From Escherichia phage vB_EcoP_phi349, in the sequence record PV189405.1: 62,509 bases of DNA. The stretch is one strand, 5' to 3'. The position numbers were made by a program. This document shows positions 39,001 through 45,000 of this stretch, piece after piece (the stretch's first letter is position 1; each line of letters begins with the position of its first letter).

Positions 39001-42000
39001 TTTTGATGCAGAAAACACAGTTCCCGAGGTGCTCCGGGATTTGCAAATCAAAAGGTTGTTTTCGCCACCACCGGATAACATCCGACTTATCAAAATCTGA
39101 CAGTTCGGCAAGATACCGGACGCCCGGTTTCGGTTTCAGCCTACGGGGTTCGTCTGCACGAATACCCAGCCACGTGATGTAGTTCCCTTGTCCGAAATGG
39201 TCATCGCAGTATTTTATGAAGGGGGTGAGTTTTAATCTGTCAGTGCAGAACGCGCCGCCGATGTATGGCGTGCCATATTTTTTTACCATGTCCATAAACG
39301 GTTTAAGCACCGGCATTCGCGTCTGAATATCCTTTGGTTCCCATTCCGTATAACCATTTGGCTGCCCAAGCTCTGGATTTATATCGACCTGCAACACGGT
39401 TAGCGGAATATCCCAGAACTTCACAACCTCCCGAATAAACCGGTACGTCAGCGGGTGTTCACATCCCGTATCCATGAGTATGTAATGAACGTTTTCACCA
39501 GCTTTTCTGCGTTGCTCCATAAGGTGGACGAGGTACGCCGATGTCCGACCGCCTGAAAAACTCACAACATGATGAGTGCTCATTTCTTCGTCTCGTTACG
39601 GGGAGGGGGTTAAATAGGTGGTAAGCTGGAATTGCCGGATGTTTACCCGTGTCCGGGGTACGACCTCACGTTGCAGCGTACGAGAATAGACTATTGCTCA
39701 GTATCGTTTGATGTCGGCTGAGGATATTCGCCTTGCTCTTGTAACAGAGTTAGAAGAATGGAAAACCCCTCACGATGTGATGATTGATGAGTGTCGATCC
39801 CGGAATGATTGATGTTGTTAAACTCCAACATCGTGCTCCTGGCGATAGCCTCAACGGTATTCCAGAATACTAATACATCTGTTTTCTGCTCTGTTTTATC
39901 AGCAACAGGAAGTTTGATATTTTGTTGACATTTATTAATGCAACCATTTTGAATATGTTCCTCGTGCTTTTCATTGTCATAAGCATACAGCCCGACAAAA
40001 ACATCTCGCACGTTACGGGATATATTTTCCAGATTCGCCTTTGGTTCCTTTGTTAAATCAAGCACCGATAAATGGGCTTTAAGCGTATCCGCAGCTATTT
40101 TCTGAATATCCTCTGGTAAATCTTTAAATTGCATAGTATACCCTCCAAGAACTGTGTATTTTCTCGTGAAATATGAGCGATATGTCGTGACGTCCCTGTC
40201 ACAGATTTCATCACACTGAGAACGTGCCGATGAAGGTTAAGATATCTTCTTCTTCGAAACGCTCTTTCAGCAGGTCACGGAACTCTTTGGCAATTTCTTC
40301 TTCCGCAGCTTCAACACGCACGATACGTAGCACCAGAACAGGCTGTTCGCTTGTCAGAATGCTTAATCGCAGCGTGAATTCCCTGTTGCCCAGGCCCTCG
40401 TATGGGATGCATTCAAAGCGGAAAGTGGCAGGCATGATTTCTTTGCTTTTAGCCTCCACGGACTCCATGACTGAGCGGCTACCGCTGAAGTTTTGCTCTT
40501 CATATTCAGCACTGCGTTTTGCATCGATGGTAAGACGACGGACAGCAGAGATAGCCTGTTTGATATCCAGCACATTACCGTCGCTGTCATAGGCTGTGAG
40601 GAAGTCGGCCCAGTCTTCCAGCCATTCAGCGAGAGACTTCTGGAGTTGTTTTTTGCCGTCAACGTCACGCAATGCGCGATATGGTGATGTGGCTTTCAGT
40701 TCCAGCAGTGCCTTGTTGTCAGCGTGTCCAGGTTGCTCCAGAGTGCCGATATTGAACACAGTGACTGCTTTCATCGTTTCCGCGTTAATGAAGCAGCGGG
40801 AGTGCTCATCGGCATACCCTTTGCTGTATTCAACAAAGTCATCAATACTGGTTGTGGTCATGACTCCACGGAAACGAAAACGTTCTGTCATGAATCGTTC
40901 CAGACTTTCGATATTTACATTGTCCGGCAATAACGCAACAGGGCATTCCGTAAGCGGCAAATTTTCACCAGAAAAAGCAGTAGTGGTGAGTTTTACAATT
41001 TCTTTAATGGCATTGCTATCTAACTGAGACATGTATATTTACCTTTAATTTATGGATTTGGGGATAATGCGCGAGCGTTTTAAGGCGGGGATTATTCAGC
41101 GTAAAACAGCGTCATGTTGACCCTGTTTATCGAAAAGCTGTCCCTGGTCTTTCTGGAACAAAGTAAGCTCACCACCTTTATTTACAAACATCGGGGTGTT
41201 AGTTGTGTCTTCTTCTGATTTACTACCACGCATTGTCGGGCGTGTGAATTTTAGTTTATGGGAAACTGATACGCGATTTTCATCAAGTGAAGATAATTCG
41301 AATTCAACACATACCTTTCCTTTTTTGTTTGTGCTGTTTACGCCAAAGGCAACTTCACTTAATACCGCGCCAAGTTTGTTAACAAATACCCCGCCGTCGA
41401 GGTCGTTAATGAAAATATTAACATCTGTCTGATGCTGACTCATATTTATATCTCCGTGTAGAGAGTGTATTGAGGCTTCGGTTGTTTACTGCATTTAAAG
41501 CCTGGTTTTGTTTGTGAATTAAAAACTATCGCTGCCGTACTGCCAGTAACCTGGGGCGTCCGTGTGATTCGGGTTTACGTTTTTGCTGCGATTGTCTTTG
41601 TCTTTGAGAGTGGAAACCATATTTGCTACAGTTTCTGGTTTCTTTCCTTCAGCTTTTTCTTTCAGTGTCTGCCCTGTTTCTGCAATGAATGGAATGCGGA
41701 TTTCCATCTGGTAACCGTCTGCGCCAGTCTTTCTGTTTGTGGTTAATACTTTCTGGAGGACGAGTCCGATTTTCTTTCCGTGAAACTCAGGTGCAACATA
41801 TTTACTGACGGAAACCATATGCTGCGTTAACTGCCCAATTCCTGTGCATCCCATCATGGCGTGAATAATGCTCGCCCCAAATTTATTTTCAGTGCCGTCA
41901 TTCTTCTGAACACAAACACTGAGATATTGGATTTTCCGTCCGTCGTCGGATTCTCCAGAAAACTCAATGAATCGGGCACCTTTTTCTGATTGCTTGAGTT

Positions 42001-45000
42001 CTGCTTCGGTGATGTTAATGATATGCGCACCCGTTTCGGTAATAAAACCACCTTGTCCGGCGGTCAGTGCTGATTCTTCGTTATAAGTAAAAATCACTTC
42101 ATCCATTAGTTATTAACCCCCCATTGTTCTCCAAATACAAAACCAATTTCCGCCAGTGCTTCGTCCATTTTGTCGATGAACTCCGGCACCATCTCATCAA
42201 AACTCGTCATGTACTTCTCATCCCGTTCGACCACGACATAATGCAGGCCTTCACGCTTCATGCGTGGATCGTAGTTGGCGAAGTACCAGGCGTCCTTGTC
42301 TGTAACCCACATGCTGAATTGCACCTGGGCCATGTAAGCAGGCTTGATAGCGTCAAAGCCGCCAAGCCGGAACTTCATGAAGTCGCGGGAAGTGAAGGGG
42401 CATTTAAGCTCAAGGCCGTTACCGTCGCTGCATAAACCGTCGGGAGAGCAGGCGGTGCGCATGCTTTCGTCACGAAAAATTATTGGCGTTTCCGAGACGG
42501 TAACATCCGCGATAAACTCGAAGAGGGCACGGGCATCATCTTCGTATTGCTTTCCCCATGCGAGCGACTTAGCGTTAACTTCCGGTGCCACGCCAGTACA
42601 AACTTCAGCCAGCAGGGTGTGGAAGTATGACATTTTTGTATCAGGCCATTTGCTGCCGGAACGTGGCTTTGCTATCACATTGTGAACTTCTGAAGCAGTG
42701 ATAACACCGAGTCTCAGCTTGTGCCATCCATCATCGCCCTGGTCGAGGCTGGTAATATCCACGCCAGTTCGCTGGAGAATAATTTCTGGTGTCATGACAC
42801 GGCCTCGCTGTTATTTTCCGTGGTGGCGTGAATTTTCGCTTCCGCCGTGGCCTTGTTTCTGGCAGCTTTCTTTTTGACAAAATCAAGCGTTTTGACAGCT
42901 TCTTCCTGACTGAGATATTCATGTGATGCAATCGTGCGACGGAATGTTTTGGAACATAAGGGAAGCAGGTCATCCCATGTCTTGTTAATTTCGGTGATTG
43001 CCTGAGTGATCTCATTGATAATCTCATCTGATGCGGGAGTGACGTCACGCTCAGGGATGTGATCAGCATTCAGGATGATACCTTCACCGCCCTGAGTGTT
43101 CAGGTAGTCGATAGCTGTATCCAGGCGATCGCGACGGGGCCAGTATTTGCTGGCGCGCTTAACAATGGCTTTTCTGGCCATTTCATCGGGGAAACTATCC
43201 CACGGGCTACTTCCTCCGTTATTTCCGGCTTTGCTGCACGCCCTGATGACCTCGATTTCCCTGTTGCTCATCTCTTCGGTCAGATAGTCGCCTTCGGATG
43301 TTTTTACGACACAATAACCGCCAATGCGTGCGCCCCTGTCGACGAATGGGTTGTATTTGTGCGTGGGGGCGCAGTCAATACCGTTGGACTCGTAAATGTC
43401 CTTCTCGTAAACAAGTTTGCATTGCCCCCACTGAATGGCTCCTGTGACCTGTGCCAGATGCAGAAGCCCCATATAACTGATATCCAGGCATACAGCCTTT
43501 TTTCGTGGTACCAGATACGCCAGCTTGCTGGCCGGGTTCAGGGTTATGCCTATGGCGGCAACATTGATGATAGCGTTCTGTGCGCTGGACAGATTTCCCC
43601 GTGCTGTGTCAGCCAGAAAGGAATTTTTCTGGAATTGCTGAATTGCAAACTGACTTTCCTTAGCCCATGTCAGCGTCGGTTCAGTTAATGCTTCGCAGAA
43701 AAAGCGCTCCTGCTGTTTAACAAATTCAACGATATCGAACATTTTTATTGGTCCTGAAAATCAGAAAGGACAGGGGGAGAATTTCCTCTCCCATTCTTCT
43801 TCCGCCCGTGCATAGGCGATCGCTGAGATATAATCGTTGTAAGCCTCTTCCGCTTTATCGCCAGTAAGTGCCAGCTGGGCTTCTTTGGGTAAAAAAAGGC
43901 TGCTCATAAGCAATGGTTTATCGGGGAACATGCTGATAAGCTCCTGCGCCCGATCGTCAATCCATTTATCCTTTTCATCCTGAATGTGCTGATTAACCCA
44001 GCGACGCTCCTCTATTCGGTCACAGGTGAGGTATGCGTTCATGGCGGAACTCCTGATTTCGGTTAATGCATTAAATTAATTTGTCGGGAAAGCTGACAGA
44101 CAGGGCAGTCACATTCTTCCTCCTGCTCCTTAGCGAAGAAATATGCAGCGGCCTGTAATGCGATGTCTTCTGGATTTTCTGCGATAAACATAACATTGCC
44201 TTCCGTATCAATAACAGAAATAGCCTCATCAGGCAGGACAAAAAAATAGGCGATGATTTTATCATCCATAAAAACTTCACCCATTATAGTTTCTGCTGGC
44301 GTTACGACGCTTTTTACATTGATATTAATTTTTTGATTGAGCATGATATTTCCTTTCAGGCTGGTGAGATTAACGGCTGGCCTTTATGGTTCAGGTAAAC
44401 TTCTATTGCATCTGAAATAATGCGAATTTTTTCAATCAGTGAATGTGCGTAAAGTGCATTATTAACGTTAGCTGACGCCATGTAATAACGCCCGTTGTAA
44501 AGAATTGCTGTGCCGGGTTTAACGTCCTTGCGAGAAACTAATATGGTTCCGTAGTGAGGTTTGAGCATGACAAATCCTCCGGTTAATTAATCCAGATATT
44601 TAATTTAATCCCCGATATATAATCGGGGAGAGATTTAATTAAAGATTAACGTTGAAACCAAAGCGGGAAGATTTTTCCGATGTGCGGGAAATATCCAGCA
44701 ATTTACGGCGCATTTCTTCCGTCAGATGCTTGAAGGCGTTAAATTCGGCGACAGCGGCGTCAACGTTATAGCCCTTGCTGTGTAGCTCGTTGAGGATGCG
44801 CATAGTTGGGCTTGGCATGTCGAAGAGTACGGAAGCATCAAGGCTGATAACCTTGCGATCAACATAGTTCATCGTGGCGTAGGGGTGATGCTCTGAAAAC
44901 CACGATAAAGGAAAATTGATATTCATCGCAGGAGAAGACAGAGCCAGTTGTTTCTGTTCCCATAGCTGTTTTTCCATGCGATCGAATTCAGCAATATAGG

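Follow-up and report, generated by a model that had tools for sequence, protein, structure and literature searches.

Between a PAPS-reductase-like gene and the exonuclease gene exo, Escherichia phage vB_EcoP_phi349 (sequence record PV189405.1) carries four minus-strand open reading frames (ORFs) of 147, 273, 115 and 195 amino acids (aa), and the question raised by this locus is whether they form one functional module. The window, as we use the term, is the whole stretch of DNA analysed, 62,509 nucleotides (nt) in length. In a first-pass annotation the four ORFs had been read as uncharacterised early genes, one of them DUF2303-like, which occupy the place of gam, kil and cIII in phage lambda, and as the most likely site of an unrecognised counter-defence or host-shutoff module. 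The four ORFs and both flanking genes were present as described there, and homologues were found for all four. It is probable, in our judgment, that the 2.4-kb interval consists of three unrelated units in the early-left operon and not of one module, the first unit being a single-stranded DNA-binding protein (SSB) gene, with the yfdP-yfdQ pair and the 147-aa ORF beyond it. That degree of confidence applies to the three-unit parse and the SSB assignment; the mechanism of YfdP-YfdQ falls outside it and is weighed separately.

Over residues 1–189 the 195-aa protein is 86% identical (93% positives, E = 2e-127) to HkaK of phage HK620, and it matches PHROG 743, labelled 'SSB', at 1e-68. HkaK binds single-stranded DNA (ssDNA) and stimulates its cognate annealing protein, Sak4, in vivo as well as in vitro through the six residues at its C terminus, NDYPPF; the first annotation of hkaK, as the anti-RecBCD gene 'abc1', had been made from position alone (PMC5928155). 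Judged by these similarities, the 195-aa protein is an HkaK-type phage SSB, ssDNA binding being shown for HkaK only. The gene is embedded in a recombination module with the order GamL-RecT-Exo-SSB. Its start sits on the exo stop codon (TAATG), giving a 1-nt overlap of the reading frames, recT and exo overlap by 4 nt, and 18 nt separate the end of gamL from recT. The three genes that follow the SSB gene are set off by gaps of 63–107 nt, and Shine-Dalgarno-like sequences precede the 147-, 273- and 115-aa ORFs.

The C-terminal tail of the 195-aa protein (...NHTDAPGYWQYGSDSF, for which the HkaK counterpart is ...NDYPPF) is aromatic and acidic with a terminal Phe. Among 80 IMG/VR loci with this SSB, the body of the protein is 84–100% identical and the tail is strictly bimodal: ...NDYPPF or ...NDYPAF was found in 58 loci, only beside Sak4 and Abc2, and ...WQYG(S/G)D(S/N)F in 22, only after RecT-Exo. 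Tail type tracked recombinase type in all 80 loci, a pattern that fits a partner-specific tail. Based on these comparisons, the SSB would complete a four-function recombination module of GamL, RecT, Exo and SSB, in which GamL would block RecBCD, Exo would resect DNA ends, and the SSB would coat the exposed ssDNA and pass it to RecT via its aromatic/acidic tail; the hand-off to RecT is proposed by analogy with the HK620 SSB and Sak4. Recombineering users would gain a RecT-matched SSB allele. Two observations count against this interpretation. The co-variation of tail and partner spans two lineages only and may represent one swap, not 80 independent ones. In addition, the 195-aa protein gave no match in our local Pfam-A copy at E ≤ 0.1, either to DUF669, the family in which the literature places HkaK, or to any other, and the SSB assignment therefore rests on the HkaK identity and PHROG 743; DUF669/N4-type proteins are diverged OB-fold SSBs with acidic C-terminal tails (Kazlauskas et al., PMC4889955).

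Interrupted versions of this locus were also encountered. In the O157:H7 genomes NZ_CP040572, NZ_CP038339 and NZ_AP026108 the match to the interval is split by an insertion of ~1.3 kb, IS1203 (IS3 family). RefSeq PGAP names such split copies of the 195-aa gene 'DUF669 domain-containing protein', with two fragments so named in NZ_CP040572 and one in NZ_CP038339, which suggests that the interrupted gene is the SSB gene. The SSB ORF is also broken in two in two IMG/VR loci, and evidently a prophage can be maintained without the SSB.

The 195-aa protein had been put forward as a candidate RecBCD inhibitor. For this gene the counter-defence reading is refuted by the similarity to HkaK, and RecBCD-inhibition assays on the protein are a false lead that the SSB assignment removes. 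The accompanying statement that nothing here resembles lambda Gam is correct for the four ORFs, which showed no Pfam or NCBIfam similarity to Gam, GamL or Abc2; phmmer searches of related loci with GamL and Abc2 as queries labelled only separate ORFs, never these four. It does not extend to the neighbourhood, where the gene directly upstream of recT matches the phi80_GamL equivalog NF033500 at 148.2 bits against a cut-off of 40. Farther upstream, a 70-aa gene matches PRK11354 with E = 1.5e-18 (66.5 bits, under the curated cut-off of 92) and carries a Kil annotation in PV189404. On these matches, the anti-RecBCD and host-killing slots are already taken, by GamL and the KilR-like gene upstream of recT.

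Gene order points the same way. Read leftward, the window runs Rha-like, 70-aa KilR-like, 93-aa ORF, GamL, RecT, Exo and the four ORFs, beyond which come the PAPS-reductase-like gene, a pair of small ORFs and a member of the Ea22 family; the lambda order is N ... cIII-kil-gam-bet-exo-orf60a-orf63-orf61-ea22-ea8.5-xis-int. The four ORFs are promoter-distal to exo and are therefore equivalent to the exo-xis region of lambda, not to the gam/kil/cIII position in which they had been placed.

Could the four genes still be an unrecognised counter-defence or host-shutoff module that replaces gam, kil and cIII, with the 195-aa protein as its RecBCD inhibitor? We regard this as improbable. The description of the genes as uncharacterised holds for YfdP, YfdQ and the 147-aa ORF, three of the four proteins, which have no assigned function; YfdQ is acidic (pI 4.8, net charge −15), like many DNA-mimic or decoy inhibitors; the genes are early-expressed accessory DNA beside a PAPS-reductase-like gene with similarity to SspD, DndC and BrxP; and the 147-aa gene is fast-evolving, as arms-race genes are. 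Against this, the 195-aa protein is assigned as an SSB, GamL and the Kil-like gene fill the canonical slots, the ORFs lie on the wrong side of exo, and the sequence and length of YfdP and YfdQ are highly uniform across Gamma- and Betaproteobacteria, which is atypical of host-specific anti-defence genes. No defence or anti-defence family was matched by any of the four in PADLOC, Pfam or NCBIfam, and fold searches gave no counter-defence evidence. The only PADLOC match, of YfdQ to PDC-M01B (E = 0.023, no stretch passing), was dismissed as noise. The homology and structure searches that had been recommended resolved the 195-aa protein as an SSB and the 115- and 273-aa proteins as YfdP and YfdQ, left the 147-aa ORF an orphan, and gave uninformative folds for YfdP and YfdQ; one of the four genes thus falls in a well-characterised non-defence family.

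By sequence identity the window is a PA2/Oslovirus-type Shiga-toxin (Stx) phage. The 2601 bases queried, 39600–42200, are 100% identical to vB_EcoP_phi346 (Oslovirus PA2) at matching coordinates, to PA2, VT2phi_272 and ArgO145, to numerous Stx2a prophages from O157 and O145 strains of E. coli, and to an Stx1a phage. Related DNA was found in 121 phage records and 262 complete E. coli genomes, and P13374 (an O104:H4 phage), TL-2011c and PA2 are carriers of these genes. Since the interval is 100% identical to deposited phages, its sequence is already public and annotated; its content is mostly known and adds nothing new to the databases. This Stx2a phage type occurs in outbreak lineages of enterohaemorrhagic E. 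coli, and early-left genes can affect prophage induction and therefore toxin release. Within the interval there are no Rfam families or meaningful repeats, and promoter-like matches are at chance level (10 observed, 10.1 expected). Terminator-like matches exceed those in shuffled sequence (19 observed, 7.5 expected), with a single weak one inside the interval on the coding strand, at 41403–41388. The residual interest is the strictly paired YfdP-YfdQ cassette.

YfdP-YfdQ is an obligate two-gene cassette that many phages and prophages of proteobacteria carry in their early operons. The 115-aa protein is 58% identical to K-12 YfdP (E = 6e-49) and matches PHROG 204 (3.9e-44), and a precomputed PF27127 match was present on 53 of 53 of its homologues. 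The 273-aa protein is 52% identical to K-12 YfdQ, and its DUF2303 character is confirmed by a match to PF10065 over residues 27–271, at 221.5 bits against a gathering threshold of 26.6 (1.6e-65). In the window yfdP lies 63 nt upstream of yfdQ. It is immediately upstream of yfdQ in 79 of 79 IMG/VR loci and in 84 of 86 diverse bacterial genome and phage loci (median gap, 52 nt); the latter set covers Enterobacterales, Marinobacter, Microbulbifer, Luteibacter, Stutzerimonas, Delftia, Comamonas and Rhodoferax, together with phages of Vibrio, Xanthomonas, Halomonas, Thalassomonas and Psychrobacter. The bacterial genomes were scanned with a YfdQ alignment narrower than the most diverse one. One of the two exceptions is an ORF-calling overlap and the other a yfdQ fragment; with these taken into account, the arrangement holds in about 164 of 165 testable loci from Gamma- and Betaproteobacteria. 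The strictness of this pairing is the main new result. Across phage records the two genes are distributed almost identically (168 against 180 records), and hidden Markov model matches were obtained in Vibrio, Xanthomonas and Halomonas phages. Overall, ~0.35% of the phage records sequenced contain the pair, as do many prophages of Gamma- and Betaproteobacteria.

DUF2303 comprises 1783 clusters at 50% identity, uniformly of 265–285 aa and single-domain, none of the top 150 showing a domain fusion. A 398-aa protein from one Logan contig (P0002) joins a YfdQ 99% identical to that of the window to an Ead/Ea22 domain (PF10065 + PF13935), probably through a deletion or frameshift linking yfdQ to a downstream Ea22-like gene. 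YfdQ is rare on plasmids, in 22 of 72,556 records, most of these 22 being non-mobilizable, several chromosome-sized and several of ~40 kb; a plasmid leading-region, anti-defence context for the gene was rejected on these numbers.

Structural data offer a limited view of the pair. A search of the PDB with a YfdQ profile returned a single match, entry 9o7m ('YfdQ protein'), in which 36 chains share one sequence 98.8% identical to a protein of a CP2-like Xanthomonas phage. The chain count suggests that YfdQ may form a large acidic homo-oligomer. We found no YfdP homologue in the PDB, no other phage protein tied to 9o7m and no paper on 9o7m in the literature; a cryo-EM preprint on a Xanthomonas podovirus, considered as its source, proved unrelated. 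PDB sequence searches with YfdP and with the 147-aa ORF returned nothing significant. The AlphaFold2 model of YfdQ has a mean confidence (pLDDT) of 76, with low confidence in the conserved PGHAD loop, and its secondary structure contains two beta-alpha-beta-beta-beta runs. A VOC fold was considered on this basis; no Pfam VOC match was found among 52 family members, and Foldseek gave nothing at E ≤ 0.001. In the YfdP model (pLDDT 86) a long helix packs on a sheet of three strands and the tail is disordered; it has no informative fold match. Profile-profile comparisons of YfdP with SSB, YfdQ with RecT and YfdQ with YfdP gave probabilities below 1%. Candidate assignments of YfdP as ChlamPMP_M (E = 5e-4, under cut-off) or Pol III beta (E = 0.18), and of YfdQ as HHH_8 (matched in 3 of 52 members only), were rejected.

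YfdP and YfdQ most likely act together, and their role is probably to modulate the lytic programme or DNA replication and not to carry out recombination. The more specific proposal that they modulate host replication or the lysis decision is the one we place first, by a small margin, and we hold it tentatively; a DNA-metabolism role, counter-defence and a virion role follow in that order. In E. coli, multicopy yfdQ and yfdR together with yfdS or yfdT inhibit initiation at oriC, and YfdR binds DnaA domain I (PMC4776307). YfdQ overproduction leads to plaques from a co-resident prophage (bioRxiv 10.1101/413146). The gene after yfdQ is yfdR in most IMG/VR loci and in 49 of the 86 diverse loci, and in prophages resembling ST64B and CPS-53 the pair is found a short way downstream of a CI-type (HTH-S24) repressor gene. 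Several points weigh against a replication or lysis-decision role. Inhibition of oriC requires YfdR, which the interval lacks, YfdP is dispensable for it, and the effect is seen with multicopy plasmids only, deletion of the genes having no phenotype (PMC4776307). The putative oligomer is read from the chain count of 9o7m, and the recurrent nearness of the pair, in unrelated phages, to genes for SSBs, exonucleases and single-strand annealing proteins fits a DNA-metabolism role equally well (PMC9144972).

That last observation is central to the alternative of a DNA-metabolism accessory, a recombination or replication mediator or an oligomer binding DNA ends or structures, working beside SSBs, exonucleases and annealing proteins. 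In the window the pair directly follows GamL-RecT-Exo-SSB. Comparable neighbourhoods occur in Vibrio phage VvAW1 (a DEDD exonuclease ... YfdP-YfdQ-x-SSB), in Xanthomonas CP2 and MET23-P3 (YfdP-YfdQ-x-x-Erf-x-Exo-SSB), in Vibrio 1.232.O, with Rad52 2.5 kb downstream of the pair, in pA2SJ1, with NinB and HNH upstream, and in Burkholderia JC1, where RecT and YqaJ precede DUF2303 in what its authors call a 'replication and repair module' (PMC9144972). The 36 chains of 9o7m are compatible with the rings or filaments of annealing proteins, weak helix-hairpin-helix matches occur in 3 of 52 family members, and a yfdQ deletion was reported to show weak MMS and H2O2 sensitivity (cited in PMC4776307). 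But phages with complete Rec modules carry the pair and so do phages that lack such modules, and for this reason Zheng et al. (PMC12315714) consider a recombination role unlikely for the yfd cluster, which they describe as common in early-left operons. The net charge of YfdQ, −11 to −15, is unfavourable for DNA binding, neither RecT nor SSB profiles show similarity, and the clustering may simply reflect a shared location in early operons. On balance we consider a DNA-metabolism role rather unlikely. A counter-defence function for the pair is less probable again, for the reasons given above.

The 36 copies in 9o7m, from a CP2-like Xanthomonas phage, are also compatible with 6- or 12-fold virion symmetry, and in Burkholderia phage JC1, mass spectrometry of purified virions revealed the DUF2303 protein gp10 (PMC9144972). 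YfdQ might on these grounds be packaged or ejected with the virion and not be purely an intracellular early protein. We think this very improbable. The gene is always in early non-structural operons, often right after the repressor and far from morphogenesis genes, it is kept in the tail-less cryptic prophage CPS-53, the detection in JC1 could represent carry-over of an abundant oligomer, and no further phage protein is tied to 9o7m.

The proposed role of YfdP-YfdQ in replication or the lysis decision can be extended, speculatively, to an obligate two-protein early machine with folds unlike those of characterised families. YfdQ, perhaps a huge acidic homo-oligomer, would with its partner hit a conserved host target, such as the replication-initiation/helicase-loading apparatus or a widespread immune sensor, and commit the cell to phage development, the 147-aa gene being a host-range-specific accessory effector. 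As a whole we judge this extended scheme unlikely. A phenotype for YfdP-YfdQ would annotate thousands of genes at once.

The third unit, the 147-aa gene, is, as far as sequence comparison can tell, an accessory ORF of modular build that diverges rapidly and fills the variable position behind yfdQ. Its distinctly AT-rich composition had been noted in the first-pass annotation, and the figure bears this out: GC content is 39.6%, where the window as a whole has 50.1%, and this places the gene at the 1.8th percentile among stretches of 444 bp. It is not unique in this respect, with yfdP at 40.8% and the 93-aa gene at 38.3%; upstream of recT, two genes are similarly AT-rich. Searches of Pfam, NCBIfam, PADLOC and the PDB gave no match. 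The ORF matches PHROG 1363 and others, none of assigned function, its N-terminal ~60 and C-terminal ~75 residues matching different PHROGs; in alignments of relatives, the conserved C-terminal module (residues ~73–147) follows one or another of at least three different N-terminal modules. It is confined to Stx-type and related lambdoid phages infecting E. coli or Shigella (19 clusters, all from E. coli; 73 phage records). The possibility that it is a diverged YfdR was discarded, no similarity having been found.

Phage TL-2011c is collinear with the window at 98% identity down to position 39580, starting from at least 44098, where the compared stretch ends. Within this region yfdQ is 99.9% and the 147-aa gene 95% identical at the nucleotide level, and the difference supports the suggestion that the 147-aa gene has a history separate from that of its neighbours. 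The changes comprise 14 nonsynonymous and 6 synonymous codons, the TL-2011c homologue has a premature stop at codon 132, and the gene may be under relaxed constraint. These features, set beside the near-identity of yfdQ and together with a very narrow distribution, low GC and absence of domain matches, would also suit a decaying or non-functional remnant. This is possible but doubtful: the ORF stays open behind a strong GGAGG ribosome-binding site in dozens of phages, and recombination of the conserved C-terminal module onto at least three N-terminal ones implies selection on that module.

Table 1. Genes of the interval and its surroundings (window coordinates)
Feature	Coordinates	Strand	Supporting match or location
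147-aa ORF, mosaic and lineage-specific, in the usual yfdR slot	39691..40134	-	
273-aa YfdQ/DUF2303 protein	40211..41032	-	
115-aa YfdP orthologue	41096..41443	-	
195-aa HK620/HkaK-type SSB (assigned by similarity), last gene of the GamL-RecT-Exo-SSB module	41519..42106	-	
YqaJ/lambda-type exonuclease (exo)	42106..42795	-	Pfam YqaJ, 3.8e-28
RecT-family single-strand annealing protein	42792..43742	-	Pfam RecT, 1.5e-24; PHROG 148, 4.4e-95
GamL host-nuclease (RecBCD) inhibitor	43761..44042	-	NCBIfam NF033500; gamL in RefSeq
70-aa KilR-like FtsZ-inhibitor relative, lambda kil position	44356..44568	-	NCBIfam PRK11354
PAPS-reductase-like gene	38705-39583		Flank on the exo-distal side
Ea22-family gene	37329-38312		Downstream of the four ORFs

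Several neighbouring loci deserve mention. The PAPS-reductase-like gene matches the PADLOC profiles SspD (2.4e-14), DndC and BrxP. The collinearity with TL-2011c ends exactly at the start of this gene (boundary 39580), and because TL-2011c has different genes there, the PAPS-reductase block is taken as a separately exchanged cassette. The 93-aa ORF between the kil-like gene and gamL (44063–44344; pI 4.1) gave no match in Pfam or NCBIfam, and a shorter version of it is named 'AbrB family transcriptional regulator' in RefSeq. On the minus strand, 45341–45428 and 45453–45528 match the C4 antisense RNA (RF01695; 77 bits, gathering threshold 45) and the Hfq-binding small RNA isrK (RF01394; 58.7 bits, threshold 50). 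The two RNA matches sit just promoter-proximal to the Rha/antirepressor-like gene at 44639–45286, and they look like an antirepressor control unit of the P1 c4/ant or Gifsy isrK type in the early-left arm. At the start of this arm, 46147–47100 and the sequence upstream are annotated as a BsuBI/PstI-family type II restriction endonuclease and an Eco57I-like methyltransferase, a phage-borne restriction-modification system. PV189404 annotates plus-strand hypothetical coding sequences at 35041–35367 and 35364–36254; a minus-strand 207-aa ORF at 35510–36133 carries a clear DUF551 domain (Pfam, 1.8e-23), and the annotation at 35041–36254 is probably on the wrong strand.

Compared with known systems, the four ORFs share the map position of the lambda exo-xis region, on the early pL transcript from exo to xis/int, and an Ea22-family gene lies downstream in the window too. 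The likeness is positional only, the four showing no Pfam or PHROG match to orf60a (DUF1317), orf63 (DUF1382), orf61, ea22 or ea8.5. The exo-xis genes are known to affect host DNA replication and the lysis-lysogeny decision (PMC10834534). With yfdP-yfdQ-yfdR-yfdS-yfdT of the cryptic K-12 prophage CPS-53, the window shares YfdP and YfdQ orthologues in the same order with a short gap. Where CPS-53 has yfdR, encoding an HD-domain 5′-deoxynucleotidase that binds DnaA, the window has the unrelated 147-aa ORF; its DUF551 (YfdS-type) protein is encoded ~3.5 kb further on, and its pair follows a full Rec module, whereas in CPS-53 the pair opens the operon.

The recombination genes are arranged as in the four-function lambdoid Rec modules of the ES18 type, GamL, RecT, Exo and SSB being contiguous with overlapping or near-abutting frames, and ArgO145, which is identical to the window here, is stated to carry all four Rec functions (PMC12315714). 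The components differ from those of the ES18 and lambda modules, with GamL instead of Gam, RecT instead of Beta and a putative HkaK-type instead of a bacterial-type SSB. The closest counterpart is SSB_HK620 (HkaK; DUF669/N4-SSB-like; 'SSB-2' of Zheng et al. 2025), which is of equal length (195 aa), likewise stands at the distal end of its recombination module and also has an aromatic/acidic tail ending in Phe. The last ~10 residues are ...YGYSQNDYPPF in HK620 and ...PGYWQYGSDSF in the window. The partner is Sak4 in HK620, whereas RecT and a lambda-type Exo accompany the SSB of the window, and the anti-RecBCD gene is Abc2 in the former and GamL in the latter.

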